Source of the DNA: Terriglobia bacterium
GTDB taxonomy: Bacteria > Acidobacteriota > Terriglobia > UBA7540
Direction of reading: 5' to 3'
Length of the DNA stretch: 33,817 nt
Assembly (NCBI GenBank): GCA_050745605.1
Contig: JBOGKI010000001.1
Span: 1-33,817 of the forward strand
Shown here: positions 8,010 through 30,047 of the stretch, in pieces
Position numbering within the stretch: the first letter of the stretch is position 1
Layout of the letters: each line of letters opens with the position of its first letter
Position numbers and translations under genes: made by a program
Notes under the pieces: generated by a model
What the model was told of the DNA's origin: nothing
Database searches by the model: none
What the model saw: only the letters and a program-made list of their open reading frames with translations

Positions 8010-8666
8010 TCACGGCGCGGCTGCGGCGCCGGACGGCGCTGAGGCCCGCAGCAACTCCTGCCGGTCCTGAACCCCGATCTTATTGAAGAGATTGGAGACG
8101 TGAAACTTCACAGTGCGCTCGGAAATCTCCAGTGCTTCGCCAATTTCGCGGTTGGAACGCCGCCGGACCATGAGCTGCAACACCTGGCTTTCCCGGGCCG
8201 TGAGCTTGCGGCCGGCTTCCAGGTCCAGCAGTTGAGTGGTCTCGCGCACGTATTGCCGGATTACGTGGTACGGGACCCAGAGGTCGCCCGCCATGACGGC
8301 CTTGATCGCCTGTGGCAGTTCTTCCTCCACCCGGTCCGAAAAGCTCACCATCCCGTCGATGCCGGAATAGAGCAGCCGTAGGATTTCCTCGTCGCTCGTC
8401 GTTCCCGCCGGCCGGAGAGCGAGGAACCTGCTGCCCGGAAACCGAAGGCGCAAGCGGCGGCTTAGCGGGTTCAAATCCTGGCCGAGCGAGCAGGAGTCAA
8501 GTACGAAGAGACGCGGATACTTTACCTGCAGGCCGTCTTCCAAGACCGCCAGCCCCGGCAGCCCCGGCAGCAGCCACTGCTTTAACAGCTCATGCATGGC
8601 CAGGACGCGAGAGAGCAAATGGGGTACCAGGGGATGTGCGGAAACAATCTGAACGTACAGGTCCAT
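8010..8666 (-). CDS. LuxR/FixJ/NarL-family transcriptional regulator with degenerate receiver domain
   Basis: C-terminal LuxR HTH (LTARESQVLQLMVRRRSNREIGEALEISERTVKFHVSNLFNKIGV). The N-terminal REC-like fold keeps an Asp in FVLDSC. The acidic pair is replaced (IVSAHP versus the usual DDHP) and I cannot align the conserved Lys. Start chosen at MDLYVQIV (GAGGG 7 nt upstream). The 333-aa ORF-track version would run into the sheath gene. Confidence 0.85.
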   Translation of the reverse strand: MDLYVQIVSAHPLVPHLLSRVLAMHELLKQWLLPGLPGLAVLEDGLQVKYPRLFVLDSCSLGQDLNPLSRRLRLRFPGSRFLALRPAGTTSDEEILRLLYSGIDGMVSFSDRVEEELPQAIKAVMAGDLWVPYHVIRQYVRETTQLLDLEAGRKLTARESQVLQLMVRRRSNREIGEALEISERTVKFHVSNLFNKIGVQDRQELLRASAPSGAAAAP

Positions 8667-8743
8667 AGTTCTACCCTCAATGCCCGGACTGGGATGTGCT
8701 GGCAAACACTTGTAGACTCCTTCCAACATGGTGTCAAGTACCG

Positions 8744-8757
8744 TATGCATATGCATA
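8744..8757. promoter_or_regulatory. 14-bp perfect palindrome TATGCATATGCATA in the divergent intergenic region (candidate operator)
   Basis: Read directly: the sequence is its own reverse complement. It lies in the AT-richest part of the 328-bp spacer between the regulator gene and the sheath gene. Confidence 0.3.
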
Positions 8758-8901
8758 ACTCGGTAAGCTTGATACGTCCCATGTGTACTCCTGTCCAGCG
8801 GCGGTACCGCTGGAGGGCAACGTTTCGCCCCATCTTCGCTGTCCTCACCAGTCCTCAATTCATGCTGAGAACCTGTCCCACCCACCCTTGGGGCAGTACA
8901 G

Positions 8902-8930
8902 TTGACAGCCGCCGGCTTCGGGCCTAATAT
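8902..8930 (+). promoter_or_regulatory. sigma70-like promoter candidate for the CIS operon (TTGACA-N17-TAATAT)
   Basis: Perfect -35 TTGACA at 8902-8907, a 17-nt spacer, and TAATAT at 8925-8930 (4/6 to TATAAT). It sits about 65 nt upstream of the sheath ATG, which has a GAGGGAGGA Shine-Dalgarno. Confidence 0.4.
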
Positions 8931-8994
8931 CTGGGGCGATAAGAGCGCGGCGCATCCCAGCACAAGCTTGTGCGCAGTAACGAGGGAGGATTCT

Positions 8995-10530
8995 ATGCCA
9001 GTCACGGTCACCTATCCAGGCGTCTACATCGAAGAAATCCCCAGCGGCGTCCACACGATTACGGGCGTCGCCACGTCGATTGCGGCTTTCGTGGGCTGGG
9101 CACCCCAGGGCCCCACCGACTCGGCGCAACTGGTCCTGAGCTGGCCCGACTATTACCGGCAGTATGGCGGTCTCGACTCGCGCAGCCTGCTCGGCTACGC
9201 GGTATCGCAGTTCTTTGGCAACGGCGGCACACAGGCTTACATCATTCGGGTGGTGGCGAGCGATGCTGCGACTGCGAGCACCAGCCCGACGGTGGCCGCC
9301 GGCACGCTGACGATCTCGGCTCAGAGTCAGGGCGGGTGGGCGAACAGCTACGGCATCCTGATCAAGAACCAAAGCGGAGGCACCAACCGTTTCCGATTGC
9401 AGATTGCTTACGCGCCGTCGGGCACTCCGACGCCACCACCGGTCGTGGTGGAGTCTTTTGAAAACCTCTCGATGACCAGTCCCGATATCCAGGGACGCTA
9501 CATTGCAGACATCGTCAACGCGCAATCGAACTTTGTCACCGTGGCCGTGACCGGCACGCCGACAGCGCCGCCCGCTGACATCACCACCCCGCAGAACCTG
9601 GCGGGCGGTAAAGATGGAACGGTGCTCACTCCAGGCACTTCCACCGGAACCTTTGAAAACGCGGTGCTCCCAGGCAGCGGAGCGGGGGGTGTGCACTTTT
9701 TGGAGCACGTGGACCTGTTCAATCTGCTGTGCGTTCCGGGTGAAGGTGATCCCACCACTCTTTCCTCGCTCGAGACCTTTTGCCGCGCTCACCGTGCTTT
9801 TCTGATTGCCGACTGCGCCGAGGCCGATACGCTCACGACCCTGCAGAATGGCCCGAGCTCCAGCATCACGGGCAATGACGGCATCAATGCGGCTTTCTAC
9901 TTCCCCTGGATCAATGCGCCGGACCCGCTGAACCAAGGGGGGACGGGCCCGTTCCCGCCTGGCGGCTTTGTGGCCGGTATCTATGCCGCGACTGACGGCA
10001 GCCGGGGCGTTTGGAAGGCTCCGGCGGGGACGGCAGCAAGTTTGACGGGCGTACTCGGTGTCAGCGTTCCCTTGAACGATCCCGAAAACGGCATCTTGAA
10101 TCCCGTAGCGGTGAACTGCATCCGCAACTTCAGCGTCTACGGCACGGTAGTGTGGGGCGCGCGCACGCTTCAGGGCAATGACGAAATCGGTTCGGAATGG
10201 AAGTACGTTCCCGTCCGCCGCACGGCGCTTTACATCGAAGAGAGTCTGTATCGCGGCACCAAGTGGGCGGTGTTCGAGCCGAATGACGAACCGCTCTGGT
10301 CACAACTGCGGCTGAACGTCGGGGCGTTCATGCACGACCTGTTCCGCAAAGGCGCCTTCCAGGGGCAGACGCCGCAAGACGCTTACTTCGTGAAGTGCGA
10401 CAGCACCACGACCACCCAGAGCGATATCAACTTGGGAATCGTGAACATTGTGGTCGGCTTTGCTCCGCTCAAACCCGCCGAGTTTGTGGTCATTCAGATC
10501 CAGCAGATGGCCGGCCAGATTGCTACGTAA
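8995..10530 (+). CDS. contractile tail sheath protein (Afp2-4/Pvc2-4-like)
   Basis: The N-terminus MPVTVTYPGVYIEEIPSGVHTITGVATSIAAFVGWAPQGP is the canonical phage-sheath signature. 511 aa. Start taken at the ATG behind GAGGGAGGA rather than the ORF-track start at 8902. Confidence 0.93.
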   Translation: MPVTVTYPGVYIEEIPSGVHTITGVATSIAAFVGWAPQGPTDSAQLVLSWPDYYRQYGGLDSRSLLGYAVSQFFGNGGTQAYIIRVVASDAATASTSPTVAAGTLTISAQSQGGWANSYGILIKNQSGGTNRFRLQIAYAPSGTPTPPPVVVESFENLSMTSPDIQGRYIADIVNAQSNFVTVAVTGTPTAPPADITTPQNLAGGKDGTVLTPGTSTGTFENAVLPGSGAGGVHFLEHVDLFNLLCVPGEGDPTTLSSLETFCRAHRAFLIADCAEADTLTTLQNGPSSSITGNDGINAAFYFPWINAPDPLNQGGTGPFPPGGFVAGIYAATDGSRGVWKAPAGTAASLTGVLGVSVPLNDPENGILNPVAVNCIRNFSVYGTVVWGARTLQGNDEIGSEWKYVPVRRTALYIEESLYRGTKWAVFEPNDEPLWSQLRLNVGAFMHDLFRKGAFQGQTPQDAYFVKCDSTTTTQSDINLGIVNIVVGFAPLKPAEFVVIQIQQMAGQIAT

Positions 10531-10562: not shown

Positions 10563-11090
10563 ATGGCTGAATTTACCGTTAACGCCCAGCGCTTCGACCC
10601 GTACAAGAACTTCAAGTTCCGGCTGAAGTGGGACAACACCTATGTGGCCGGGGTAAGCAAGGTCAGCATGCTGAAGCGGACCACTGAGGTGGTGAAACAC
10701 CGCGAAGGCGGCGACCCTTCAAGCAGCCGCAAATCGCCCGGGCGTACCGAATACGACGCCATCACGCTGGAGCGCGGTGTGACCCACGATTTGGCGTTTG
10801 AGCAATGGGCCGGCAAGGTTTGGGCTCTCGGCAACGGGCTGGGGCAGGAAGTGTCCCTGAAAGACTTCCGGAAAGACATCACGATTGAGGTTTATAACGA
10901 GGCTGGCCAGAAGGCCCTGGCCTACAACGTTCACCGTTGCTGGGTGTCAGAGTACCAGGCGATGCCGGACTTTGACGCCAACGCCAACGCCGTGGCCATC
11001 CAGCATATCAAGCTGGAGAACGAAGGCTGGGAGCGGGACCTTTCGGTAACGGAGCCCACCGAGCCGTCCTTCAACGTCCCGACAGGATAA
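10563..11090 (+). CDS. tail tube protein (T4 gp19-like, Afp1/5-like)
   Basis: FDPYKNFKFRLKWDNTYVAGVSKVS...HREGGDPSSSRKSPGRTEYDAITLERGVTHD is typical of the gp19-like 'conserved phage tail region' tube family. AAGGAGGA Shine-Dalgarno before the ATG at 10563. Confidence 0.9.
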   Translation: MAEFTVNAQRFDPYKNFKFRLKWDNTYVAGVSKVSMLKRTTEVVKHREGGDPSSSRKSPGRTEYDAITLERGVTHDLAFEQWAGKVWALGNGLGQEVSLKDFRKDITIEVYNEAGQKALAYNVHRCWVSEYQAMPDFDANANAVAIQHIKLENEGWERDLSVTEPTEPSFNVPTG

Positions 11091-11096
11091 CAGAAG

Positions 11097-11831
11097 ATGC
11101 GCGCGCTGTCGGCGTCGGAGCTTCTGGAAGTGTGGGAGCGTGGGCTGGTTCAGGGACCGGTGGAGCGGGCGCTGACACTGTGGGGAGCGGCCTGCCCGGA
11201 GACGCCGCGCGAGGGCCTGGCCGCGCTCAGTATCGGACGCCGGGATGCCGGCCTGCTGACGCTCCGCGAATGGACTTTCGGTCCTCAATTGGCCAGTCTG
11301 GCAACCTGCCCCCACTGCGGCCAGCAACTCGAACTCACTTTCAACGTCGAGGACATACGCGTGACCCCGGCGGCGGAACCGGCCGCGGAGTCTATGATGA
11401 CGGTGGCCGGTTACGAGCTGCAGTTCCGGCCGCCGAACAGTATGGATATCGCTGCGGCCGTTGACGGGTCCGGGACCGGTCGCGAGCGAAGGACGTTGTT
11501 TGAGCGCTGTCTGATGGCGGCTCGCTGGCAGGGCGAACCGGCAACGCCGGACGAACTGCCGCCGGAGGTGGTTGACGCCATGGTGGACGGGATGGCTGCG
11601 ATGGATCCTCAAGCCGACATTGAGCTCAGCATCTTGTGTCCGTCGTGCGGCCAGCGATGGCACGCGGTGTTTGACATCGTCTCCTTCTTCTGGAGTGAGA
11701 TCGACGCTTGGGCCCGCCGGATACTGCGCGAGGTCCACGTCCTGGCGTCCGCCTATGGCTGGGGCGAGCGTGAGATTCTGGCTTTGAGCCCGTGGCGGCG
11801 GCAACTCTACCTTGAGATGGTGGGCGGATGA
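11097..11831 (+). CDS. CIS-associated protein with two CxxC pairs (putative split zinc ribbon), function unknown
   Basis: 244-aa ORF 6 nt after the tube gene. CPHC at aa 71-74 and CPSC at aa 181-184. Its stop overlaps the next start (ATGA). No family name recalled. Confidence 0.75.
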   Translation: MRALSASELLEVWERGLVQGPVERALTLWGAACPETPREGLAALSIGRRDAGLLTLREWTFGPQLASLATCPHCGQQLELTFNVEDIRVTPAAEPAAESMMTVAGYELQFRPPNSMDIAAAVDGSGTGRERRTLFERCLMAARWQGEPATPDELPPEVVDAMVDGMAAMDPQADIELSILCPSCGQRWHAVFDIVSFFWSEIDAWARRILREVHVLASAYGWGEREILALSPWRRQLYLEMVGG

Positions 11832-12694
11832 GCGACTTCCTGGCGCATCTGGCGGCAAGAAGCTCGGGGTCGGGCGAGATCATCAGGCCGCGAGTCGCCT
11901 CGCTTTTTGAACCGTTGCCGTCGCCTGTCGGGCCCATCGGGCTGGGCGGCGGATTCCCGACGGCCTCAGAACCGTTTGTTACCGAGCGTCCGGTATTCGA
12001 GGAGAGCGAGGCCCGTGTTTCGGCCGAGCGGTCCGCAAGTCCTGTGGCCGGATTGTCGAACGCACGGACGGAGGGCCGGCCGGACGAGCGTCTGCCGCAG
12101 GGCCGTTTGCCGACGCGGGACTTTGCCTCGCTGCCGCGTCCAGGAGTACAACTCGTGGCTGAGGAAGCCCTTTCCCAACTGCCGGGCTCCGAGGCTCCAT
12201 GGCCTCGGTCCGCGGGGAACGTTGTGCGGGTCTCGGCCGCGCTGCCGGCGGAATCCCCTGGCGACCGCGCGCCCAGCAGCTTGCAAACGCCCAAGCTGGG
12301 AAGCGACCGCAAACCGCCCGCCGGGGACAGTCGCGAGGCTCGATCGCAGGGGCCTGAACACAAGCCTCCCCTTGACGGAAATCGAGATCCGGACAGCCGT
12401 CCCAGCGAGCTCTCTCTCCTTTCCAGACCGAACCCGGCCGACGCGATTCTGCAGCCACACCTCAAGGCCGCGCCCCAGACCGACCATCCGTGGCCGAAGC
12501 GGGCGCGACCGGCGGTGGAACCAGAGCCTACGATTCAAGTGACCATCGGCCGCATCGAGGTGCGAGCGACGTCAACGCCAGCCCCAGCGTCTGCGAAGGA
12601 ACGCCAGGTGCCTCGCGTCATGAGTCTGGATGAGTACTTGCAGCGCCGAAGCGGTCGAGGCGGCGGCCGAGGTGGCGCCGGAGGCGGCGAGTGA
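11828..12694 (+). CDS. disordered Pro/Ser/Arg-rich protein, candidate tape-measure/length-determining protein
   Basis: 288 aa and low complexity, except for the N-terminal FLAHLAARSSGSGEIIRPR and the C-terminal TIQVTIGRIEVRA...MSLDEYLQRR followed by GRGGGRGGAGGGE. Both ends are translationally coupled. The functional call rests on position only. Confidence 0.55.
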   Translation: MSDFLAHLAARSSGSGEIIRPRVASLFEPLPSPVGPIGLGGGFPTASEPFVTERPVFEESEARVSAERSASPVAGLSNARTEGRPDERLPQGRLPTRDFASLPRPGVQLVAEEALSQLPGSEAPWPRSAGNVVRVSAALPAESPGDRAPSSLQTPKLGSDRKPPAGDSREARSQGPEHKPPLDGNRDPDSRPSELSLLSRPNPADAILQPHLKAAPQTDHPWPKRARPAVEPEPTIQVTIGRIEVRATSTPAPASAKERQVPRVMSLDEYLQRRSGRGGGRGGAGGGE

Positions 12695-13908
12695 GCAACG
12701 CCTTGGCCATCGCCGCCGTGACTGCCACCCTTGAGGCCATCGTCGGGAAGGCCGTGACCGCCGACCCCGACCTGAACGATACCCAGATGACAGCGCTGCC
12801 ACCAGACAAGGCGCGCGGCGCCATCACCACCAATCAACTCAACCTGTTTCTCTACCAGATTCTGCCTGACGCGGCCTGGCGCAACATGGATGTCCCGACA
12901 CAGGTGAAGCCCGGCGAAACCGGCATGCCACCGCTGGCCCTGACCCTGCATTACCTGATGACGGCCTACGCTCGCGAAAACGACACCAGCGAGCCGTTTG
13001 ACCACCATCTGCTCGGCAAAGCCATGAGCGTCCTTTACGATCACGCCCTGCTCGGTCCGGACGAAATCAAGCTGGCTCTGCCGGGGAGCGGCCTGGAGCG
13101 CCAGGTGGAGCGGGCGCGCATCACCCTGCAGCCCCTGTCGGTGGAGGAGATTTCCAAGCTGTGGACGGGTTTCGCCACCCAGTACCGGCTCTCGGTGGGC
13201 TACGAAGTTTCTGTCGCGCTGATTGACAGCACCCAGCCGGTGAAGACGCCATTGCCGGTGTTGACGCGCGGAACACAGGACCGGGGACCGTCCTCGCAGG
13301 CGGACCTGATTCCTCCGTTTCCGGCTCTTGACACCGTGCTACTCCCCAACCAGCAGCCGAGCGCCAGGCTGGGCGATACGCTCACCCTCGCCGGTCACGA
13401 CCTGGACGGCACCAACCTGGGGGTGATGTTCGACCACGCGCTGTGGACGAGTCCGCAGGAAGTCGCGCCCAGCCCCGGCGGCACTTCCACCCAACTTACC
13501 GTGACGATTCCCAACCTGCCGGCGGCGTGGCCGGCAGGCTTTTACACCCTGGCGGTGCTCGTGCAGCGGCCGGGCGAGACGTATCGCCGGACTACGAATC
13601 AGCTCTCGTTTTCGCTTGCACCCGGCATCGCCATTGCGCCCAACACGGCCCCGGCGGGGAACGTGACGTTCACCGTGACCTGCAGCCCCGAGGTCTGGCC
13701 GCAGCAGAGCGTGTCATTGCTCCTGGGCGACCAGGATCTTCCCTCGCCCTCCGTCCTCAGCAAGACCGCCACCTTGACGTTCACTACCAGCCTGGTGAAG
13801 GGCGATTATTTTGTCCGCTTGCGCGTGGATGGCGTGGACAGCCTGCTGGTGGATCGTTCCGTCACCCCACCGGTATTCGATCCGACGCAGAAGGTGACAA
13901 TTACATGA
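12691..13908 (+). CDS. DUF4255 (Pvc16/Afp16-like) tail terminator/cap protein with C-terminal extension
   Basis: GTG start overlapping the upstream TGA. MSNALAIAAVTATLEAIV... and NQLNLFLYQILPDAAWRN match my memory of DUF4255 proteins. The C-terminal ~200 aa is beta-rich and looks like two Ig/IPT-like repeats. Confidence 0.8.
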   Translation: MSNALAIAAVTATLEAIVGKAVTADPDLNDTQMTALPPDKARGAITTNQLNLFLYQILPDAAWRNMDVPTQVKPGETGMPPLALTLHYLMTAYARENDTSEPFDHHLLGKAMSVLYDHALLGPDEIKLALPGSGLERQVERARITLQPLSVEEISKLWTGFATQYRLSVGYEVSVALIDSTQPVKTPLPVLTRGTQDRGPSSQADLIPPFPALDTVLLPNQQPSARLGDTLTLAGHDLDGTNLGVMFDHALWTSPQEVAPSPGGTSTQLTVTIPNLPAAWPAGFYTLAVLVQRPGETYRRTTNQLSFSLAPGIAIAPNTAPAGNVTFTVTCSPEVWPQQSVSLLLGDQDLPSPSVLSKTATLTFTTSLVKGDYFVRLRVDGVDSLLVDRSVTPPVFDPTQKVTIT

Positions 13909-16049
13909 GCGACTTGACAAGCTGGCAGGAAGGCAACGAACGCTATCTTTCGGCCGCGCTGGCCTGGTTGCGCGCACGGCTGGAGCGGCAGGCCGGCCAC
14001 GGTCAGGGGGCGCTCGCCTTGTCTCTCCCGCAGCCTCGGCCTCAAGTTCAGCCTCAGGCCGGAAGCAGGTCGCTCTGGACCCAACTCATTCGGCGGCCGG
14101 CCTCGGCTCCGGTAGCGAGAACGCCTTCGCTGCTTCCGCCGGCGCGGGGACACGACGCGGACGAGCGCGTGGCGCAAGCGGCCGCCGCCATGCTCACCGC
14201 CGCGGCGCAGCCGGGCCATCCACCGGCGCTGACGTTGCTGGGACAGCAGCTCGGCTTGTCGCGGTTTGACCAGGAACTTCTGTTGCTGTGTGCGGCGATG
14301 GAGCTCGATACCGGCACTGCGTCACTTTGCGCGCGCGCTCAAGGCGATCCAAGCCGGCCCTACCCGACCTTCGCTCTGGCCCTGGCGCTGTTCGACGAGC
14401 CGGCGTGGGGCGCCCTTTCACCCGAGCACCCGCTGCGTTACTGGCGCCTGATTGAGATCACCCAGCCGGCGGGCCTGCCGCTCACGACGAGCCCTTTGCG
14501 CGCCGACGAACGCATCGTGAATTACCTCAAGGGGCTGAACTATCTTGATGACCGGCTGGGTTCCCTCGTGGCGCCGCTTGACATGGCGGGCGGCGAAGCC
14601 GGTCTGCCGCCCTCGCAACAGACGAGCGTCGCCGCGATTGCGGGCCATCTGAAGCCCGGTCGGAATCTCGCCGCGGTCCAGTTGTTGGGGGCTGACCCCG
14701 CCAGCAAGCAACTGGTGGCAACGCAGGCCGCGGCCGCTCTCGGCCTGCGCGTATACCGGTTGCCCGCCACGCTCATCCCCGCCCAAGCCGTCGAGCTCGA
14801 GACCCTGGCGCGGTTGTGGCAAAGGGAGAGCCTGCTGCTGCCGATCGCGCTCTACGTGGACGCGCTGGGGTCCGAGACGGACGCTCCATCTGCCGGGCAG
14901 GCGTCTCCGCTCAGTCGTCTGCTGGGCCGTCTCAGTGGCAGCGTCGTGTTCCTCGACACGCGTGACCTGTGGCCCGGCCTGGCACAAGGCAGTCTGGCGG
15001 TCGACGTAAGCAAGCCGACTGCCGCCGAACAGCGGGCCGCCTGGACCGCAGCCCTAGGTGAAACGGCGGGCGAAGCCCCGGCCAAACTGGCCGGCCAGTT
15101 CAACCTCGGGCTTTCCGAAATCCAGCAGATTGCCCATAAGGCGCTCTCCGAACCGGCCACCGAGGAACGCCCCATACCCGACCGCCTTTGGGATGCCTGC
15201 CTCGCTGGCACCCGCCCGCGGCTGGACATGTTGGCCCAGCGCCTCGAGCCCAAGGCCACCTGGGATGACATCGTGCTGCCGACAGCGGAGAGCAATCTGT
15301 TGCGCCAAATCGCCGCCCAGGTCGGGCAGCGGAGCACGGTGTATCAGTCCTGGGGATTTGGTGACAAGATGAGCCGCGGCCTCGGGATCAGCGCCCTCTT
15401 TACGGGCGACGCGGGCACCGGCAAGACCATGGCGGCCGAGGTCATCGCCAACGAGCTGCGCCTGAACCTCTACCGCATCGACCTCTCCGCCGTGGTGAGC
15501 AAGTATATCGGCGAAACGGAGAAGAATCTGCGCCGGCTCTTCGATGCCGCGGAAGACGGCGGCGCGATTCTCTTCTTTGACGAGGCCGACGCCCTTTTCG
15601 GCAAACGCAGTGAAGTGAAAGACAGTCACGACCGCTACGCCAACATCGAGATCAACTACCTACTGCAACGCATGGAAGCCTACCGCGGCCTCGCCATTCT
15701 GGCCACCAACATGAAGAGTGCCCTCGATCCCGCGTTCATGCGCCGGCTCCGCTTCGTTGTGGGCTTCCCGTTTCCCCGCGTCACCGAACGCAAAGTGATT
15801 TGGCAGAAAGTGTTTCCGCCCCGGGTGCCGGCGGCCGGGCTCGACTTCGATCGTCTCGCGCGCTTGAACTTGACCGGCGGCAACATCCAGAGCATTGCGC
15901 TCAATGCCGCCTTTACGGCGGCGCAGGCCGGAACGCCGGTGACGCAGCCCTTAGTCCTGGACGCGGCTCGCACGGAACTGCGCAAGCTCGGACGCGTGGT
16001 CAACGAGCTGGAGTTTCGCGGCCAGGCAGCGGCTGGAAGGGTGGCATGA
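13905..16049 (+). CDS. AAA+ ATPase (Afp15/Pvc15-like CIS assembly ATPase)
   Basis: Walker A GDAGTGKT (15405-15428), Walker B ILFFDEADALF, and LAILATNMKSALDPAFMRRL (sensor/Arg-finger region) in the C-terminal third. Large N-terminal domain of unknown fold. Start at the ATGA overlap (MSDLTSWQEG...). Confidence 0.9.
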   Translation: MSDLTSWQEGNERYLSAALAWLRARLERQAGHGQGALALSLPQPRPQVQPQAGSRSLWTQLIRRPASAPVARTPSLLPPARGHDADERVAQAAAAMLTAAAQPGHPPALTLLGQQLGLSRFDQELLLLCAAMELDTGTASLCARAQGDPSRPYPTFALALALFDEPAWGALSPEHPLRYWRLIEITQPAGLPLTTSPLRADERIVNYLKGLNYLDDRLGSLVAPLDMAGGEAGLPPSQQTSVAAIAGHLKPGRNLAAVQLLGADPASKQLVATQAAAALGLRVYRLPATLIPAQAVELETLARLWQRESLLLPIALYVDALGSETDAPSAGQASPLSRLLGRLSGSVVFLDTRDLWPGLAQGSLAVDVSKPTAAEQRAAWTAALGETAGEAPAKLAGQFNLGLSEIQQIAHKALSEPATEERPIPDRLWDACLAGTRPRLDMLAQRLEPKATWDDIVLPTAESNLLRQIAAQVGQRSTVYQSWGFGDKMSRGLGISALFTGDAGTGKTMAAEVIANELRLNLYRIDLSAVVSKYIGETEKNLRRLFDAAEDGGAILFFDEADALFGKRSEVKDSHDRYANIEINYLLQRMEAYRGLAILATNMKSALDPAFMRRLRFVVGFPFPRVTERKVIWQKVFPPRVPAAGLDFDRLARLNLTGGNIQSIALNAAFTAAQAGTPVTQPLVLDAARTELRKLGRVVNELEFRGQAAAGRVA

Positions 16050-16420
16050 AAATCAACGTTCGCATCGAGCGGCTGATTCTGGACGGCCTGCCCGTTGCGA
16101 CACTGCAGGGTCCGCAGGTCGCACGCGGTGTCGAAAAGGAACTGGCGCGCCTGCTCGCGGTGAATGGGTTGTCCGACGAGCTTCGAGGCGGCATCGCCGT
16201 CCCTAGCGTGCACGCCGGGGCCGTCCGGCTTGGCAAAGAGACTCAACCGGCAAGATTGGGGCAGAGCATCGCGCGTGCCGTTCACGAAGGCATTGGGAAC
16301 TGTGGTGCAGGCATCTTGCCTGCAGAAGACAGGGTTCGTAGCATTGCAGCCTGGAAGGCTGCACCACAAGAAGGGACGAGGCCTGTGCACCTTCCAGAGC
16401 CGGGAGGGAGTCCGCGATGA
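16046..16420 (+). CDS. small hypothetical protein coupled between the ATPase and the DUF4157 gene
   Basis: 124-aa ORF (MKINVRIERLILDGLPVATLQGPQ...) with ATGA overlaps at both ends. No family recognised. Confidence 0.6.
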   Translation: MKINVRIERLILDGLPVATLQGPQVARGVEKELARLLAVNGLSDELRGGIAVPSVHAGAVRLGKETQPARLGQSIARAVHEGIGNCGAGILPAEDRVRSIAAWKAAPQEGTRPVHLPEPGGSPR

Positions 16421-17874
16421 GCAAGCAAGCGGCAACCCAGGCGAAGCAGAGTCTTGCGCCGGGGTTCACTCGCGCTCGCAGCAGTCTCTTAGAGCGCTAC
16501 AACACGCTGGGTCCGCACCTCTGTATTCAACGTGAAGCGATGGGCCCTGCCGTGCATCCCTCGGCGCCGACTTTGGTGCGCGACGTGGTGGAATCCCCGG
16601 GCCGGCCGCTCGATGCCGCGACACGTTCGTTCATGGAACCGCGCTTCGGCTATGACCTGAGCCAGATACGTGTACACACTGATGACCGGGCGGCGGAGTC
16701 GGCGCAAGCCGTCCGCGCCAATGCCTACACGGCGGGAACGCATGTCGCCTTTGGTACAGGCCAGTATGCGCCCGGGACACCGGGCGGTCAGCGGCTGTTG
16801 GCACATGAGTTGACCCACGTTGTGCAGCAGGCCTCCGGGCGTGTGGCCTCTACTCCCATCGCTGACCGTTTGTCGGTCAGCGACCCTTCGGATCGTTTTG
16901 AGCAAGCTGCCCGAGAGAACAGCGCCGCGGCGATAGCCGCACCAAACAATGACCCGAAGGTCGTGTCCGGTTTGCCGACCCTGCCTGCCGCTGCCACGTC
17001 GGAGAGCGACACCCTATTACAGCGTCAGCAGGAGGGCCCCGCCGCCTTTACTGGCGCAATTGCCGGTGGGTTCAGCGCTGTTTTCGCAGGTATCGGACTC
17101 ATTCCCGCGTTTGAGAGCGCCGCCGCCGGCAAGCGCCAAGCAGCGGAAGCGGAGAAGCAGACCAAAATCGCTCAAGCAAACCTGGATGTCGCCAAAGAGG
17201 CACTAGCTGTCGCCGACAACCCTCCGGTGCCTGCTCCCACCACGGGCGGCATCGTCGTGAACAACGGCGCCGGATACGCGGACATTTCCCCTTCAAAACT
17301 TCCGAAAGGAGTCGAAGCCGGAGAGGGGAAGGAAGTGCCGTTGACGCTTCTAAAGGTATCTCAGGGGGCGAATGACTTCGCGAATTTTAACGCCGTCGTC
17401 AAGACCGACGGAAAGAACATCACGGGGGGATACCTCCAAGACGGCCCGGCCCAGGGTTACCTGGGCGGTTCCGCAGGAAGCAACCTTAGCTTGTCGCTAA
17501 AACCGGTCGAGGGTCCCGCCATTCCGCAGGTGGCGCCAGGCGGAAAGACAAAAGGCAAGCCCCGGCCGATTGCGAGCGTGCGGTTCTTGATCAGCGGCAA
17601 CAACATCGCTCCGAGAACGCCGCCGGCGGGTGCAAGTCAAATCCAGCGCTTCAGCGGAAGCGTGTCGGTATCGGCGGCAGGCGACGTGGTGGCCAGCAAG
17701 CCATTCTCCGCAACTCCCGGAACCATGACGCCCGGGGATGGGGTCTCAAGACCGGCTGTCGCCATAGATCTTCCGCCCAGCCAACCCGCACCCACACCGC
17801 CGCCCATTCCGGCTCCGGCTAAGAAGAAAGCTACAGGTGGCGGTACTCCTGCGCCGGGGGGAGGCGCAAAATAA
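16417..17874 (+). CDS. DUF4157 (HExxH, 'PVC-metallopeptidase'-type) protein with uncharacterised C-terminal module; candidate effector
   Basis: FMEPRFGYDLSQIRVHTDDRAAESAQAVRANAYTAGTHVAFGTGQY...LLAHELTHVVQQ is a textbook DUF4157 signature (HELTH codons 16804-16818). GGGAGGGAG Shine-Dalgarno. 485 aa. Confidence 0.9.
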   Translation: MSKQAATQAKQSLAPGFTRARSSLLERYNTLGPHLCIQREAMGPAVHPSAPTLVRDVVESPGRPLDAATRSFMEPRFGYDLSQIRVHTDDRAAESAQAVRANAYTAGTHVAFGTGQYAPGTPGGQRLLAHELTHVVQQASGRVASTPIADRLSVSDPSDRFEQAARENSAAAIAAPNNDPKVVSGLPTLPAAATSESDTLLQRQQEGPAAFTGAIAGGFSAVFAGIGLIPAFESAAAGKRQAAEAEKQTKIAQANLDVAKEALAVADNPPVPAPTTGGIVVNNGAGYADISPSKLPKGVEAGEGKEVPLTLLKVSQGANDFANFNAVVKTDGKNITGGYLQDGPAQGYLGGSAGSNLSLSLKPVEGPAIPQVAPGGKTKGKPRPIASVRFLISGNNIAPRTPPAGASQIQRFSGSVSVSAAGDVVASKPFSATPGTMTPGDGVSRPAVAIDLPPSQPAPTPPPIPAPAKKKATGGGTPAPGGGAK

Positions 17875-18536
17875 TGGCCGCCTTTCCTGGATCGCCGCGC
17901 GTGCTGAAGGGCGGCATCGTGCTGCTCGATCCTGACCAGTTCACCGTGCTGCCGAACGGCATCATTGTGTTGCAGTACAACCCGGACACGCTAACGCGGA
18001 CGCTCAAGATAAAAGGCGCGGAGGAGGGCGGCGACCACTCCGAGGCCCTGCGGCTCACCGGGCCGCCCGTCGAGACCATCAAGCTTGACGCCGAGATCGA
18101 CGCCACGGACCAGCTTGAGCAGCCGGACCAAAATTCCAACACGGTGCAGAACGGCATCTTCCCGCAGCTTGCGGCGCTTGAAACCATCGTCTATCCGGCC
18201 AGTGCAACCTTGCAGAACAATTTCAACCTGGCGCAGCAGGGGACGCTCGAAATCATGCCCATGCTGGCTCCGTTCACCTTGTTCGTGTGGAGCGCGAACC
18301 GCATTGCGCCGGTGCGCATCACCGACCTCAGCATCACGGAAGAGGCCTTCGACCCGAGGCTCAATCCCATCCGCGCCAAGGTCAGCCTGGGCTTGCGCGT
18401 CCTGACCATTGACGACCTGAACTTCTCCGACAAGAGCGGCAGCCTTTACATGACGTACCAGCAGCAGAAGGAGAGTCTCGCTCAGTTGGTTCAGGGCGGC
18501 ACTTTCAGCAATCTCGGCATCACGGGGATTCCATGA
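17874..18536 (+). CDS. putative tube-initiator/baseplate-hub adaptor (CIS tube-like N-domain)
   Basis: 220 aa, with a TAATG overlap to the upstream gene. VLKGGIVLLD...IIVLQYNPDTLTRTL resembles the '...NPE/D...' strand motif of tube-like domains in Afp7/gp54-type initiators. The assignment is tentative. Confidence 0.5.
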   Translation: MAAFPGSPRVLKGGIVLLDPDQFTVLPNGIIVLQYNPDTLTRTLKIKGAEEGGDHSEALRLTGPPVETIKLDAEIDATDQLEQPDQNSNTVQNGIFPQLAALETIVYPASATLQNNFNLAQQGTLEIMPMLAPFTLFVWSANRIAPVRITDLSITEEAFDPRLNPIRAKVSLGLRVLTIDDLNFSDKSGSLYMTYQQQKESLAQLVQGGTFSNLGITGIP

Positions 18537-18907
18537 GCAACGGCGTACAGACGGATCCGGTCCAGGCGCTCCTGGCGCAGACCGCCCTGCAGAGGACGCT
18601 CTTCACGGCGACCAGCCGATACTACGGAATGGGCACGGACACGCTCGACTTGCCGCAGGGGAAGACCATTATTTACCTGCGCCGCCGCTTCGTGCCGCCG
18701 CCGGAAGGCTTCCAGTTGCTCCAGGAGCACACCGTCGTCCAGGGCGACCGTCTGGACAACCTCGCGGCGCAGTACCTGGGTGACCCGACGCTTTTCTGGC
18801 GGCTCTCGGACGCTAACCGGGCCATGCGGCCCGAGGATCTGACCGCGACGGCGGGCCGCAAGCTGTGCATCACGCTGCCGGAAGGCATTACCGGAAGCTC
18901 GCTATGA
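18533..18907 (+). CDS. LysM-like tail protein (P2 gpX-like)
   Basis: 124 aa. HTVVQGDRLDNLAAQYLGDPTLFWRLSDANRA is a LysM-type motif as found in P2 gpX and CIS baseplate LysM proteins. ATGA overlaps on both sides. Confidence 0.7.
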   Translation: MSNGVQTDPVQALLAQTALQRTLFTATSRYYGMGTDTLDLPQGKTIIYLRRRFVPPPEGFQLLQEHTVVQGDRLDNLAAQYLGDPTLFWRLSDANRAMRPEDLTATAGRKLCITLPEGITGSSL

Positions 18908-20031
18908 ATCGGGGTTTCTATCTGACGCTGATGATGGGAGGCTTCAACGCCAGCCCCGTGCCGCAGCCTGTCATCGACGCCTTGACCGACGTGCAAGTGA
19001 ACTCCACCGTCGGCAGCCAGGGCGGCTTCCAATTGAAATTCACCCTGGGCAAGAATTCCCCCATTCAGCAGATGTTGAGCTCCGGGTTCTTCGATCCCCG
19101 CACCCGCGTGATTATCGCCGTCACCGTGAACGGGTCGACCGAAGTTCTGATGGACGGGATCATCACCAAGCAGGATGTAACGCCCTCGATCGCCGCAGGC
19201 AAGTCAACTCTATCAGTCACCGGGCTCGACCTGACGGCGCTGATGGACTTCATCGACCTCACCGGCATCCCCTATCCCGCCCTGCCGGAGTTTGTGATCG
19301 TGGAGGCTATCCTGGCCAAGTATTTGGTCCTGGGCGTCGTACCCCTCGCGCTTCCCGCGAGTATCCCCTCGTTTGAGAACCCGCTCGAGCATTTCGTCAA
19401 GCAAGATGGAACGGACTATGCCTTCGTGACCGCGATGGCGCGTAAGGTGGGCGCTGTCTTCTACCTCGATCCCGGCCCGAAGCCCGGGTCGAGCTTGGCC
19501 TACTGGGGCCCGGATATCAGCAAGCTTTTCGGCAGCCCGCAGCCGGCCCTCAGCATTAACCTGGATGCCAGCACCAACATCGACTCGCTCAGCTTCTCCT
19601 TTGACGGCACGCTGGCCACGCAGTATCTGGTGACCATCATCGAGCAGAACACCCAACTGCCCATTCCCATTCCAGTGCCCAACATCACCCTGCTGAAAGG
19701 TCCGCTGGCCGCGCAGTTGCCTCCCATCGCCAAGGTCACGCAACTGAGGCCCATCGCCAGCGAGAATCCGGTGGGAGCGGCTCTGGCGGCCCTTGGCACC
19801 CTCTTCTCAACTCCGGACGTCATCTCCGCGCAGGGTCAGCTCGACGTGCTGCGCTACGGGCACGTCTTCAAGGCGCGGCAACTGGCGGCAGTGCGGGGCG
19901 CAGGTTCGTATTACGACGGAAAGTATTATGTGAAAAGTGTCACCCACAGCATCAAGCGGGGCGAGTACAAGCAGAGTTTCACCCTGTCGCGAGGCGGAGT
20001 GGTTTCGGACGTGTCAACCGTGAGCGTATGA
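18904..20031 (+). CDS. baseplate hub protein (phage late control gpD / gp27-like)
   Basis: 375 aa. The C-terminal ...YYDGKYYVKSVTHSIKRGEYKQSFTLSR is typical of gpD/VgrG N-domains. Position is immediately before the gpV-like spike gene. Confidence 0.8.
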   Translation: MNRGFYLTLMMGGFNASPVPQPVIDALTDVQVNSTVGSQGGFQLKFTLGKNSPIQQMLSSGFFDPRTRVIIAVTVNGSTEVLMDGIITKQDVTPSIAAGKSTLSVTGLDLTALMDFIDLTGIPYPALPEFVIVEAILAKYLVLGVVPLALPASIPSFENPLEHFVKQDGTDYAFVTAMARKVGAVFYLDPGPKPGSSLAYWGPDISKLFGSPQPALSINLDASTNIDSLSFSFDGTLATQYLVTIIEQNTQLPIPIPVPNITLLKGPLAAQLPPIAKVTQLRPIASENPVGAALAALGTLFSTPDVISAQGQLDVLRYGHVFKARQLAAVRGAGSYYDGKYYVKSVTHSIKRGEYKQSFTLSRGGVVSDVSTVSV

Positions 20032-20543
20032 TTACGAGCACCAAATACTACGGCATCTATCGCGGCACAGTGGTCAACAACATCGACCCCTTGCAGATCG
20101 GCCGGATCATGGTGACGGTTCCCGACGTGGGTGGTATCACGCCCTCCACTTTTGCAACTCCCTGCGTGCCTCTGGCCGGCAAACAGATGGGGACTTTCAT
20201 GGTGCCGCAGATCGGCGCCGGAGTGTGGATCCAGTTTGAAGCGGGAGACCCGGACCGTCCGGTCTGGAGCGGGGGTTGGTGGGGCAATGCGGCGGAGGTG
20301 CCGGCCCTGGCGCTGGCCGGCGTCCCGGCGGATCCCAACATTGTCATTCAGACGACTCTGCGGAACGCCATCGTGATCAGCGACCTTCCGGGTCCTACCG
20401 GCGGCATCATGCTCAAGAGCACCACCGGGGCCACGATCATCGTGAATGACACGGGGATTTACATTCAGAACGGCAAAGGGGCGAGCATCATCATGACCGG
20501 CCCCACCGTCACCGTCAACGCCGGAGCCCTCGTGGTCGTCTAG
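20028..20543 (+). CDS. spike protein (baseplate assembly protein V / gp5 OB-fold, Afp8-like C-part)
   Basis: YYGIYRGTVVNNIDPLQIGRIMVTVPDV...GAGVWIQFEAGDPDRPVWSGGWW is the gpV/gp5 OB-fold signature. The C-terminal beta-helix-like repeats are IVIQT/IVISD/IIVND/IYIQN/IIMTG. Confidence 0.85.
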   Translation: MITSTKYYGIYRGTVVNNIDPLQIGRIMVTVPDVGGITPSTFATPCVPLAGKQMGTFMVPQIGAGVWIQFEAGDPDRPVWSGGWWGNAAEVPALALAGVPADPNIVIQTTLRNAIVISDLPGPTGGIMLKSTTGATIIVNDTGIYIQNGKGASIIMTGPTVTVNAGALVVV

Positions 20544-20559
20544 GCTAGAGGTGTATGAC

Positions 20560-20883
20560 ATGCCGGGATTCCTGGTCCACGTCGGAGCTACCGTCACCTG
20601 CGCCCACGGCGGGCAGGCGCAGCCCACCGTCCCCAACCCGCGCGTCACGGTGATGGGGCAGCCCACGGTGACGATCGCAGCACCGTACGTCGTCGCCGGT
20701 TGCGCGTTTCCGCCGCCCCCCGCCGCCAACGGCCCCTGCGTGACGGCGCAGTGGGTGGTGGGGACGACGCGCCTGACTTCCAGCGGCCAGCCGCTGGTCG
20801 TCTTGAGCAGCCAGGCGATCTGCGCGCCCACCGGAACGCCCCTACTGATCCTGGTGACGCAGACTCGAGTTACGGCGATTTGA
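20560..20883 (+). CDS. PAAR-like spike-tip protein (Afp10-like)
   Basis: About 107 aa, small and Gly/Val/Thr/Pro-rich with conserved-looking Cys (VTCAHGG, VAGCAF, GPCV, AICAP), directly after the spike gene. ATG at 20560 sits 8 nt after GAGG; GTG at 20551 is an alternative start. There is no literal PAAR motif, so this is a family-level call only. Confidence 0.65.
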   Translation: MPGFLVHVGATVTCAHGGQAQPTVPNPRVTVMGQPTVTIAAPYVVAGCAFPPPPAANGPCVTAQWVVGTTRLTSSGQPLVVLSSQAICAPTGTPLLILVTQTRVTAI

Positions 20884-20889: not shown

Positions 20890-21252
20890 ATGAACATCGA
20901 CTTTCCCTATCACTTCGACGGACGTGGCCGGACCGCCTCGACGGATGACGATGACCACATCCGCGACATGATCGAGCAATTGCTCTTCACCAATCCCGGC
21001 GAGCGTGTGAACCGGCCGGACTTCGGCAGCGGCCTGCTGCAGATGGTGTTCGCGCCCAACAGTCCCGAGCTGGCGGCGGCGCTGCAGTTCACCATGCAGG
21101 CGGCCCTCGTGCGATACCTCGGTGACCTGATCGACCTGAAGTCGCTCGAAGTGACGGCGCAGGATTCCACCCTGAGCGTGGTCATCCAGTACCTGGTGCG
21201 GCGCACCCAGGAAAGCCGCAGGGAGACGTTCGTTCGGAGCGGTGTGCAATGA
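20890..21252 (+). CDS. baseplate wedge protein GPW/gp25 family (Afp9-like)
   Basis: IRDMIEQLLFTNPGERVNRPDFGSGLLQMVF is the GPW/gp25 signature. 120 aa. Confidence 0.9.
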   Translation: MNIDFPYHFDGRGRTASTDDDDHIRDMIEQLLFTNPGERVNRPDFGSGLLQMVFAPNSPELAAALQFTMQAALVRYLGDLIDLKSLEVTAQDSTLSVVIQYLVRRTQESRRETFVRSGVQ

Positions 21253-27860: not shown

Positions 27861-30047
27861 ATGAACGCTGACCCTGACCGGCTCTACGAACTGGTGCCCG
27901 CGATCTATCGCCTGCGGGACGCGGAGCAGGGCTATCCTCTGCGCGGCTTGTTGCGCGTCATCTCCGAACAGGTGAACCTGGTCGAGGCCGACATCGCCCG
28001 GCTTTACGAGAACTGGTTCATTGAGACTTGCCAGGACTGTGTGGTGCCGTACATCGGCGAGCTGATCGGCTATACGGTGCTGCCCGACGGGACAGAGGTG
28101 GCCGAGGTCGAGACGGCGCGGGGCGAGGCGCGCAACCGCATCTTGATTCCGCGGCGCGAGGTGGCCAATACCATCCACTACCGTCGGCGCAAGGGTACGC
28201 TGGCGCTGCTGGAGGATCTGGCCCAAGCCGTCGCCGGATGGCCGGCGCGGGCGGTGGAGTTCTATCGGCTGCTCGGGTGGACCCAGAACATCAATTACCT
28301 GCACCTCGACCGGGGCCGGACGGTGGACGTCCGGGATGGCGACGCGCTCGACGACATCAATAGTGCCTTCGACGAATTAGGGCATACTATTGATGTAAGA
28401 TGTAAAAGTGTGGAGTTTCTCCACACTTTTCCGAGGGCCGGAAATATTCCCAAAGTTGGGGTATTTGTGTGGCGGCTGACGTCGTATTCGGTGACCGAAA
28501 CTCCCGCCTTCTGCTTTGAGGAAGAAGGCCCTAACTGCTTTCTGTTCAGTGTATTAGGCAATGACGCCCAACTGTTCACCAGACCCCAGCTTCCCTCGCC
28601 TCATCCCCCGGGCAAGCTCAACTTGCCCATGCCGATCCGTCGCCGCGACTTCGAGACAATTGAGACAGCCGAGATAGCCGAGTCGAGTGATTCGGGCGTA
28701 CCGGCTTACTACGGCGACGGCAAGAGTCTGCAGGTCTGGACCGGGTCGCCGCGCCAGCCCGTCCCAGCGAAGTACATCGTCCCGGCGGACCTGACCGACT
28801 GGACCTATCGTCCGCTACCCGGCCAGGTCGCAGTGGACCCTGTGTTGGGTCGCATCGCTTTCCCGCCGGGTCAATCCCGCCGACAAGGCGTGTGGGTTTC
28901 GTATTATTACGGATTCAGCGCCGACATTGGTGGCGGAGAATACGACCGGCCGCTTGCGCAGCCTGCCAGCTACAAGCTTTATGTTGTCGGCGAGCAGCAA
29001 CCCTTCGCCCGTATCAACGACGCCCTGACGCAATGGAAGAGCGATGGGCCGGCAAACGCCGTGATTGAGATCGCTGACAGCGGCGTCTATGTCGAGCCCG
29101 TCAGCATCGCGCTGAAGGCCAAGCAGACGCTGCAGATTCGAGCCGCCAATCGCAAGCGCCCGGTACTCCGTCTCCTGGACTGGCAGACGTCCCAGCCCGA
29201 CGACCTGACGGTTACCGGTGAGCCGGGTACTTGGTTCACCCTCGACGGCCTGCTAATCACGGGGCGGGGAGTCCAAGTTGAGGGCAACGTGGCGGGCGTG
29301 ACCATCCGACACTCGACGCTCGTGCCGGGATGGGGTCTGCAGTGTGACTGCGAGCCGCTCCACCCCACCGAGCCGAGCCTGGAGCTCGTCAATTCGCCGG
29401 ATTGCATCAGCATCGAGCACAGCATCATCGGCAAGATCCAGGTGGATCGCGACGAAGTGAAGGAAGACCCTGGGCTGATCCACATTAGTGACAGCATCGT
29501 GGATGCCACCAGCCCGAAGCGGGTCGCGCTGGGCGCGCCCGAGAGCCTGTGCGCTTACGCGATCCTGACCATCAAGCGCAGTACGGTTTTGGGGCAGATT
29601 CAGACCCACGCCATTGCGCTCGCCGAGAACAGCATCTTTATGGGTTCGATTCTGGCCTGCCGCCGGCAGCAAGGCTGCATGCGGTTCTGCTACGCGCCGC
29701 CCGGCTCGCGCACGCCGCGGCGGTACCACTGCCAGCCTGATCTGGTGGAGGCGGCGGTGGCGGACCTCTTCACCCGTGGCGACCTTACGACGGCGGAAAG
29801 GGACGCGTTGTTGGCGAGCGAGCGGCTCCGCGTCGAGCCCGAGTTCAACAGCACACGTTACGGCGCGCCCACTTACTGCCAGCTTGCAGACGACTGCGCC
29901 TGCGAAATCAGGCGCGGGGCCGACGACGAGTCGGAGATGGGCGTTTTCCATGACTTGTACCAGCCCCAGCGGCTGGCCAACCTGCGCACCCGGCGTGACG
30001 ATTACACGCCGGCCGGTATGAATGCCGAAATCATTTACGCCAGTTAG
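27861..30047 (+). CDS. phage tail protein (P2 gpI-like N-domain) with C-terminal parallel beta-helix-like repeats; candidate fibre/receptor-binding protein
   Basis: LYELVPAIYRLRDAEQGYPLRGLLRVISEQV...ARLYENWFIETCQDCVVPYIGELIGY matches the gpI-like 'phage tail protein domain'. Later there are periodic rungs (VIEIADSGVY, LQIRAAN, FTLDGLLITG, VTIRHSTLVPG, ISIEHSIIG, IHISDSIVDA, LTIKRSTVLG, LAENSIFMG). Confidence 0.75.
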   Translation: MNADPDRLYELVPAIYRLRDAEQGYPLRGLLRVISEQVNLVEADIARLYENWFIETCQDCVVPYIGELIGYTVLPDGTEVAEVETARGEARNRILIPRREVANTIHYRRRKGTLALLEDLAQAVAGWPARAVEFYRLLGWTQNINYLHLDRGRTVDVRDGDALDDINSAFDELGHTIDVRCKSVEFLHTFPRAGNIPKVGVFVWRLTSYSVTETPAFCFEEEGPNCFLFSVLGNDAQLFTRPQLPSPHPPGKLNLPMPIRRRDFETIETAEIAESSDSGVPAYYGDGKSLQVWTGSPRQPVPAKYIVPADLTDWTYRPLPGQVAVDPVLGRIAFPPGQSRRQGVWVSYYYGFSADIGGGEYDRPLAQPASYKLYVVGEQQPFARINDALTQWKSDGPANAVIEIADSGVYVEPVSIALKAKQTLQIRAANRKRPVLRLLDWQTSQPDDLTVTGEPGTWFTLDGLLITGRGVQVEGNVAGVTIRHSTLVPGWGLQCDCEPLHPTEPSLELVNSPDCISIEHSIIGKIQVDRDEVKEDPGLIHISDSIVDATSPKRVALGAPESLCAYAILTIKRSTVLGQIQTHAIALAENSIFMGSILACRRQQGCMRFCYAPPGSRTPRRYHCQPDLVEAAVADLFTRGDLTTAERDALLASERLRVEPEFNSTRYGAPTYCQLADDCACEIRRGADDESEMGVFHDLYQPQRLANLRTRRDDYTPAGMNAEIIYAS
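28404..28430. repeat. perfect 12-bp inverted repeat with 3-nt spacer inside the tail-protein CDS (intrinsic-terminator-like)
   Basis: aaaagtgtggag-ttt-ctccacactttt read directly. This is an 8-bp G/C-containing stem flanked by A4 and T4, embedded in a locally AT-rich patch (24/60 G+C by hand count around it). Confidence 0.6.

Follow-up and report, generated by a model that had tools for sequence, protein, structure and literature searches.

What does a DUF4157 gene do when it lies inside the structural operon of an extracellular contractile injection system (eCIS), joined to a C-terminal part that resembles no known toxin? The question is raised by a 33,817-nucleotide stretch of a Terriglobia bacterium contig (JBOGKI010000001.1, positions 1 to 33,817), here called the window, in which a gene at 16417-17874 on the + strand (open reading frame [ORF] and translation; stop codon counted in) encodes a 485-residue protein of the DUF4157-headed eCIS cargo type. 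A sequence-only reading of this DNA had taken the protein for the cargo of the particle, encoded at an unusual place. We agree on the cargo, with a payload best called uncharacterised, and disagree on the place, which turns out to be ordinary. We put at roughly 0.6 the probability that the gene product is a polymorphic cargo protein (effector) of the surrounding eCIS. Its residues 1-204 are a constant carrier, consisting of a disordered basic N-terminus, an intact DUF4157 domain, and a linker, and residues 205-485 are one of many interchangeable cassettes found at a fixed slot between the ATPase and tube-initiator genes.

The division into carrier and cassette rests on a comparison of the slot across related loci. 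Loci were sampled through the neighboring Afp5-like gene (80 metagenome loci, 65-96% identity) and pooled with loci from a contig scan for the DUF4157 motif (among the matches listed); slot contents were counted in the 69 loci with at least 1500 nucleotides (nt) upstream of the Afp5-like gene. That contig scan, made with the family alignment, yielded the DUF4157 domain only, with no full-length relatives among the matches listed. DUF4157 genes occupy the interval between the ATPase and the Afp5-like gene in 65 of the 69 loci, and thus the in-operon location that had been thought unusual is the standard cargo slot of this clade. Most often it is a single gene (29 loci), with tandem sets of two in 20 loci, three in 12, and four in 4. 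The 119 slot proteins fall into 64 C-terminal clusters, with 48 singletons. In the unbiased subset, the module found in the window is present in 5 of 24 loci whose Afp5 is at least 75% identical and in none of 17 more distant loci. Replacement of the C-terminus in the manner of a cassette had been named beforehand as a check on an effector role, and this is what the close loci show; strict conservation of the C-terminus together with a structural match to a tube or baseplate component, named as the opposite outcome, was found in neither respect. At one point, identical synteny in all seven loci found via the protein's own homologues suggested that the module is a fixed core part of the lineage. 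That idea was dropped because of ascertainment bias, given the much lower frequency of the module under Afp5-based sampling.

Where the constant part ends can be seen in several ways. In BLAST comparisons, most close loci have slot proteins whose homology to the window protein breaks off somewhere in residues 137-239; where the tube initiator is 75-96% identical to that of the window, the break usually falls at about residue 137-200. L087, whose tube initiator is the most similar (96%), has a 332-aa slot protein that resembles the window protein only to residue 176. In the nearest complete locus that does have the module (L088), identity falls along the DUF4157 gene, from 84% in the N-terminal region to 71% in the DUF4157 domain and 24% in the C-terminal module, compared to 94% for the Afp5-like, 90% for the LysM-like, 94% for the Afp7-like, 93% for the spike, 93% for the PAAR-like, and 91% for the gp25 proteins. 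Across related loci, the C-terminal domain (CTD) is 24-62% identical, versus 72-96% for the tube, Afp5-, Afp7-, and PAAR-like proteins and gp25 (64-93% for the spike). Hidden Markov models (HMMs) of the N-terminal region and of the linker (residues 142-208) match many otherwise unrelated slot proteins, the linker up to its Q-R motif; an HMM of residues 205-485 matched none of these unrelated slot proteins. The boundary between carrier and payload therefore lies at about residue 204, at a conserved L201-Q202-R203. For most shared genes the closest named locus is that of an Isosphaerales metagenome-assembled genome (L086); loci from Korobacteraceae (L003) and Paraburkholderia sacchari (P0011) were also compared.

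Some loci carry further DUF4157 genes in tandem beside the window-type cassette (L002, 6044-7786; L085, 11317-13554; L098, 4418-5677), and the one in L002 is fused to Gln_deamidase_2, a recognizable toxin domain. Because of these additional genes, the window-type protein is not always the sole cargo, nor does its gene always stand beside the tube-initiator gene.

Could the protein be an adaptor or plug instead of a toxin? Its DUF4157 region would then bind the tube initiator and spike, and the protein would prime the lumen or plug it, perhaps as a recruiter of cargo from genes elsewhere; this would resemble Streptomyces lividans Sle2 (SLIV_17110), the small DUF4157 protein of a phage-tail-like particle. 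Like the window protein, Sle2 is a DUF4157 protein tied to a CIS, and it binds the Afp5 homologue SlpT2 (PMC13277306), a tube initiator of the same kind as is encoded by the window's next gene. S. davawensis Tme, in turn, co-elutes with PAAR-like, spike, and tube-initiator proteins (PMC11126660). Also in keeping with an adaptor, the gene is the only DUF4157 gene in its operon and overlaps the tube-initiator gene by 1 nt, its CTD is without catalytic-type residues, and window-type genes coexist with extra DUF4157-toxin genes in the three tandem loci just described, including the one with Gln_deamidase_2. Sle2, however, consists of little besides DUF4157 and serves as a bridge for a separate effector, Sle1, whereas in the window DUF4157 is fused to its own C-terminal module and there is no Sle1-like gene nearby. 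No other toxin-like gene was found in the window, which leaves an adaptor with no other cargo to adapt and makes the DUF4157 protein the sole cargo candidate in its operon. An adaptor should moreover co-evolve with its partners, which are 80-96% conserved, but 19 of 24 close loci have another CTD in its place, and in L088 it has diverged to 24% identity. The number of slot genes ranges from 0 to 4, and the fold matches no solved CIS, phage, or type VI secretion system (T6SS) component. We regard an adaptor as unlikely and return to the protein as cargo.

The carrier begins with a region predicted to be disordered and basic (residues 1-49, nt 16417-16563; AlphaFold2 [AF2] and charge), a candidate loading signal. 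The AF2 confidence score (pLDDT), used as a proxy for disorder, is below 50 over residues 1-41; the N-terminal region is basic, with a net charge of +4 over residues 1-63, and has few aromatics. An IQR(E) motif lies at residues 37-40 (nt 16525-16536), with Q38 and R39 at least 90% conserved. There follows the DUF4157, or PVC-metallopeptidase, fold (residues 50-175, nt 16564-16941; Pfam PF13699, AF2 pLDDT above 90). The PF13699 match covers residues 64-141 and profile positions 1-78 of 79, at 111.5 bits (cut-off 22) and E = 2.2e-32; this family, formerly DUF4157, now carries the Pfam name eCIS_core ("eCIS core domain"). The signature was correctly called complete from the letters, and all of the strings quoted at that time are present. 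The stretch LLAHELTHVVQQ (residues 127-138, nt 16795-16830) contains HELTH (nt 16804-16818) and Q137 (nt 16825-16827), and E162 follows at nt 16900-16902. With H130, E131, and H134, these complete the zinc-site signature HExxHxxQ...E that defines the PVC-metallopeptidase (PMC3482391). H130, E131, H134, Q137, Q138, and E162 are invariant across 58 homologues.

The linker (residues 176-204, nt 16942-17028; conservation, HMM, BLAST) forms the junction of carrier and payload and ends in LQR. It includes DTLLQRQ (residues 198-204); within L201-Q202-R203 (nt 17017-17025), Q202 is invariant and R203 at least 90% conserved. Thus Q-R motifs flank the DUF4157 domain of the window protein, 93 residues before HExxH and about 70 after. 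The same hydrophobic-Q-R motif, often followed by K or Q, occurs in DUF4157 proteins about 6-fold above the expectation from composition. Its distance before the HExxH histidine is -93 in 24 and -120 in 16 of 43 independent slot proteins, and it recurs 50-75 residues past that histidine, even in proteins with unrelated C-termini. A "D..EqEA....hydrophobic-QR" module can stand on either side of the DUF4157 domain. The motifs could be recognition or cleavage sites.

Cargo of this kind has precedents. DUF4157 was defined as the PVC-metallopeptidase, with a proposed role as a releasing peptidase that precedes hypervariable toxin domains, frequently with no immunity gene (PMC3482391); later work showed it to be a core domain of eCIS with links to validated toxins (PMC8213781, PMC11297309). 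Experiments have already documented DUF4157 cargo encoded inside CIS clusters (PMC8894135, PMC8894136, PMC11126660, PMC11566945). AlgoCIS Cgo1 and Cgo2 fill the tube lumen, and their N-terminus is needed for loading while DUF4157 is not (PMC8894135; bioRxiv 10.64898/2026.05.27.728243). Two DUF4157 proteins co-purify with the CIS of Anabaena (PMC8894136), and five DUF4157 proteins are secreted, in a sheath-dependent manner, by the CIS of H. borinquense (PMC11566945). In S. davawensis, Tme combines DUF4157 with transmembrane helices, coiled coils, and a nuclease and is encoded directly upstream of the baseplate genes (PMC11126660). Lack of annotation in the C-terminus is the norm among such proteins, as 983 of 1130 predicted DUF4157 effectors carry no second domain with an annotation (PMC11297309).

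The window protein is closest in plan to Cgo1 and Cgo2, with which it shares a disordered N-terminus, a central DUF4157 domain, a variable ordered C-terminal domain, and a gene inside the CIS cluster; Cgo1, at 498 aa, is also similar in size. The C-terminal domain of Cgo1, however, is a predicted second metalloprotease, whereas here it consists of a hydrophobic segment, a helix, and a beta domain without recognizable relatives. Location in the lumen and N-terminus-dependent loading were shown for Cgo1 and Cgo2 and would hold here by analogy. In common with the PVC-metallopeptidase polymorphic toxins (Zhang et al. 2012) and the DUF4157 toxins of eCIS (Geller 2021; Danov 2024), the window protein pairs a constant HExxHxxQ-E peptidase with hypervariable C-termini; the eCIS linkage and the frequent lack of an immunity gene known from those toxins are both found in the window. 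Unlike theirs, its module lies outside the catalogued Tox/Ntox and Pfam families and is not shared with other secretion systems.

These precedents also bear on whether the DUF4157 metallopeptidase is itself the active principle, acting on target proteins while the C-terminal part serves for targeting or anchoring only. The zinc site is intact and invariant, the PVC-metallopeptidase does occur as a terminal toxin domain, as in VgrG2b (PMC3482391, PMC6899460), and a second DUF4157-like domain recurs among the C-terminal cassettes of the slot. But the toxicity of Cgo1 is independent of its metalloprotease motifs (PMC8894135), and a constant N-terminal domain beside C-termini that are hypervariable is what one expects of a domain that carries or processes, not of the payload itself (PMC3482391). 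A toxic DUF4157 domain thus seems quite improbable, and we look for the activity in the C-terminal module of the cargo.

The payload opens with a Gly/Ala-rich, glycine-zipper-like hydrophobic segment (residues 209-238, nt 17041-17130; Kyte-Doolittle), a candidate membrane-inserting helix. The 28-residue Gly/Ala stretch within it was rightly noticed from the letters, though placed 6 nt too early; it corresponds to residues 211-238 (nt 17047-17130), and its peak Kyte-Doolittle 19-mer is 1.84. Hydrophobicity of the segment is kept in all 58 family members (median, 1.83; at least 1.6 in 50 of 58) despite sequence drift; of the properties of the junction region, only this glycine-zipper-like segment is never lost. 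Comparable segments, often right behind the boundary motif, occur in 34 of the 119 slot proteins and in 13 of the 64 cassette families. Next comes a long Lys/Glu/Ala-rich helix (residues 232-267, nt 17110-17217; AF2 pLDDT 82-89), which bears out the short helix described before; its length differs among homologues, with indels of about 26 residues in the family alignment.

The region of about 190 residues that follows is present as reported, but its composition is Gly/Pro/Ala/Val/Ser and not Gly/Ser/Asn/Lys. It is not low-complexity filler. AF2 predicts a folded all-beta domain of unrecognized fold (residues 268-452, nt 17218-17772; pLDDT 90-98) made of long strands, with pLDDT 90-98 over residues of approximately 300-450. 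The full-length model, built from 58 homologues, has a mean pLDDT of 80; residues 228-470 modeled alone give a pLDDT of 87 and a predicted TM-score (pTM) of 0.72. Motifs of the beta domain are PP..P.TTGG, GYLGGS, G.N, and QRF. Strong conservation in the last 280 residues falls on glycines, prolines, L312, A322, I335, Y348, N396, Q410, and F412. We looked in the family alignment of these 280 residues for a conserved Asp, Glu, His, Cys, or Ser column and found none, suggesting that the payload is not an enzyme. The protein ends in a Pro-rich spacer and Lys/Gly tail (..PAKKKATGGG.., residues 453-485, nt 17773-17871; composition); a tail of this kind had been described, and residues 451-485 comprise 11 Pro, 6 Ala, 6 Gly, and 4 Lys. 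A P-x-K-[AKG]-GGG-like C-terminal motif is found in most family members, but not in all.

Relatives of the payload were sought by sequence and by predicted structure. The C-terminal part has no match in Pfam (E up to 10), NCBIfam, or PHROGs. Foldseek found no significant match in the PDB, where solved structures of CIS, phage tails, and T6SS are included (E of 0.29 at best with the full model and 0.53 with the CTD model; TM-score at most 0.27), or in BFVD (best E = 0.06; TM-score at most 0.38). The weak top matches of Foldseek were LptE-like, NTF2-like, and BPI-like (TM-score at most 0.38, not significant) and were set aside, as was a resemblance in composition between the Gly/Ala segment and ATP synthase subunit c in a PDB sequence-profile search (E = 0.89, not significant). 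The earlier failure to match this region to any toxin family thus stands across these resources, and we call the payload module uncharacterised, without a family in these sequence searches or an analogue of its predicted fold. Just 29 clusters came back when residues 262-485 were compared by phmmer with 1.84 billion representative proteins, and their lengths fit the payload family or truncated calls of it. A CTD profile search of 5.8 billion proteins gave 23 matches, all with PF13699 except for one truncated gene call, which shares the window-type synteny. So far as these searches go, then, the C-terminal module exists only behind DUF4157.

How might such a protein work? By analogy with Cgo1 and Cgo2, we imagine that the disordered N-terminus directs loading into the tube lumen, dependent on or helped by the adjacent AAA+ ATPase, and that the protein is stored there and expelled upon sheath contraction. 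The payload is probably a non-enzymatic, membrane-active effector, because it has neither conserved catalytic-type residues nor an adjacent immunity gene. Action on a membrane is the most plausible choice, given that the hydrophobic segment is always kept, that similar segments recur in the slot, and that no immunity gene is seen. Going by sequence features, the glycine-zipper-like segment and the adjoining helix would insert into the target membrane, and the beta domain would bind or oligomerize there, leading to membrane damage or a conduit, all without enzymatic activity of the payload. DUF4157 may, hypothetically, cut at the flanking Q-R motifs and free the payload. Since DUF4157 is dispensable for loading in AlgoCIS and Cgo1 toxicity is HExxH independent, such a processing role of the domain is speculative. 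Two bolder proposals are doubtful in our view: that the CTD represents a new class of non-enzymatic membrane-inserting or pore-forming eCIS effector and, separately, that the flanking hydrophobic-Q-R motifs are self-cleavage sites of the PVC-metallopeptidase. If true, the single-cargo operon would be a minimal system to show what DUF4157 does.

Several observations weigh against the reading of the protein as a polymorphic cargo effector with such a payload. At a Kyte-Doolittle value of 1.84, the hydrophobic segment is merely borderline as a transmembrane helix, and AF2 leaves residues 208-234 unmodeled (pLDDT below 50). In AlgoCIS, DUF4157 is dispensable for loading, and the toxicity of Cgo1 does not depend on the HExxH motifs (PMC8894135; bioRxiv 10.64898/2026.05.27.728243). 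Neither the window nor the related loci examined have an immunity gene adjoining the DUF4157 gene; the next gene is the conserved Afp5-like one in the window and in L001, L003, L084, and L086. In the phmmer and profile searches the CTD was never fused to PAAR, Rhs, VgrG, or other carriers, a confinement to a single architecture that is unlike many polymorphic toxin domains. Finally, GC content at third codon positions (GC3) is 0.67 in the DUF4157 ORF and 0.63 in the 124-aa ORF upstream, compared to 0.75-0.86 in the structural genes, and such low GC3 together with fast divergence could be explained by relaxed constraint instead of an arms race. The dip in GC noted by eye around 17280-17460 is present though modest (0.575-0.59 versus 0.61-0.66 in the surroundings).

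A last alternative makes the protein a tape-measure-like miniature of Tme that lies in the tube during assembly, helps to set its length, and, once ejected, forms a channel in a membrane in the way of phage tape-measure proteins. S. davawensis Tme (BN159_7576) and the "tme-like" genes do share with the window gene an N-terminal DUF4157 domain with hydrophobic and helical segments behind it and a position directly upstream of the tube-initiator and baseplate genes, as also for phage tape-measure genes (PMC11126660); the window operon has no recognized tape-measure gene, and neither has the CIS cluster of S. coelicolor, yet its particles are of uniform length (PMC12237407). Tme, though, is a protein of 2247 aa, about 70% disordered and encoded by the largest ORF in its cluster, with several transmembrane helices predicted, remote homology to tape measures, and an EndA-like nuclease at its C-terminus. 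The 485-aa window protein has one hydrophobic segment (Kyte-Doolittle 1.84), one helix (about 35 residues), and a beta domain that is compact, without similarity to tape measures or nucleases. We think a ruler more improbable still, as no tape-measure match was found in PHROGs or Pfam for the full protein, residues 179-485, or residues 228-485, only about 35 residues are helical and most of the C-terminus is a compact beta domain, the ORF is not the largest of the operon (485 aa versus 1231, 946, 728, and 714 aa), and a ruler is hard to square with slot proteins that vary from 332 to 1138 aa and from 0 to 4 copies while the structural genes next to them are nearly identical.

As had been stated, the DUF4157 gene lies between the ATPase and baseplate genes, and both junctions overlap. 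Its start shares ATGA (16417-16420) with the stop of a small upstream ORF, with an RBS-like (ribosome-binding site) box, GGGAGGGAG, 7 nt 5' of the ATG; its TAA stop shares TAATG (17872-17876) with the Afp5-like ATG, an overlap of 1 nt. The 485-aa protein has 1913 homologues, of which approximately 60 are full length. Other-frame ORFs overlap the gene at 16489-16905 (-), 16949-17206 (+), and 17831-18187 (-); we take them to be high-GC by-products because the + frame that we read holds the Pfam match and homologues throughout.

The small ORF just upstream (16046-16420, +; synteny) encodes 124 aa and overlaps its neighbors at both ends. It has no match in Pfam, NCBIfam, or PHROGs. Many related eCIS loci have a counterpart of 86-124 aa at the same place, whichever cassette follows, and it is fast-evolving (37-73% identity). 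Its product may be a cargo-handling accessory.

Around the slot, the eCIS operon is complete, with sheath, tube, cap, AAA ATPase, tube initiator, spike, PAAR-like, gp25, and baseplate J genes. The sheath (8992-10530) and gp19-type tube (10563-11090) genes come first. Directly 3' of the tube gene, and apart from the remaining baseplate genes, is a gene for a 244-aa CxxC zinc-ribbon protein of the baseplate-hub type (11097-11831, +; T4_baseplate, Pfam E = 4e-14; PHROG 150, "baseplate hub"). A 288-aa protein rich in Pro, Ser, Ala, Glu, and Arg follows (11828-12694, +); it looks disordered and has no family match. The position of its ORF between the baseplate-hub-like and cap genes is conserved, identity across loci is only 26-33%, and the C-terminus (IQVTIGRIEVRA...) looked conserved by eye. 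Because the operon has no recognized tape-measure gene, this ORF is another candidate for one. A shared-looking I-x-V-x-I-x-R-I-E had hinted at kinship between the 288-aa and 124-aa ORFs, of which BLASTP shows none. Then come the Pvc16_N cap (12691-13908) and the AAA+ ATPase, Afp15/Pvc15-like (13905-16049, +; Pfam AAA and WHD), which is the upstream border of the slot and keeps this position in all related loci examined.

The downstream border is the Afp5-like tube initiator (CIS_tube, 17874-18536, +; Pfam PF19266). It is followed by a LysM-like protein (18533-18907), an Afp7-like hub (18904-20031), a gp5-type spike (20028-20543), a PAAR-like protein (20551-20883), gp25 (20890-21252), large baseplate proteins (from 21249), and DUF6519 (30022-31731). 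After the DUF6519 gene lies a 151-aa ORF with several long hydrophobic stretches and no Pfam match (31873-32328, +), whose product could be a membrane protein tied to particle release or anchoring; beyond it are only short ORFs without matches. At the other end, a divergent regulator of the GerE/LuxR family (8010-9011, -; Pfam E = 2e-18) lies just upstream of the sheath gene, in agreement with the GerE-type regulators reported beside eCIS operons. Farther upstream (139-5627, +), the translations alone look like the housekeeping proteins MetK, AhcY, TldD, and PmbA. If these calls are correct, the eCIS is chromosomal and not on an obvious mobile element.

These findings leave present ideas on the working of eCIS unchanged. 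Both the in-operon position and the general architecture of the protein are ordinary for its class. DUF4157 is the most widespread marker of eCIS cargo, and the C-termini joined to it are for the most part uncharacterised. To these the window protein adds one well-defined cassette family, with a confidently predicted fold, no analogue, and no catalytic signature. As the only cargo candidate in its operon, it offers a simple case for loading, possible Q-R processing, and membrane activity. For the engineering of eCIS, the boundary at about residue 204 marks a place where foreign payloads might be grafted.

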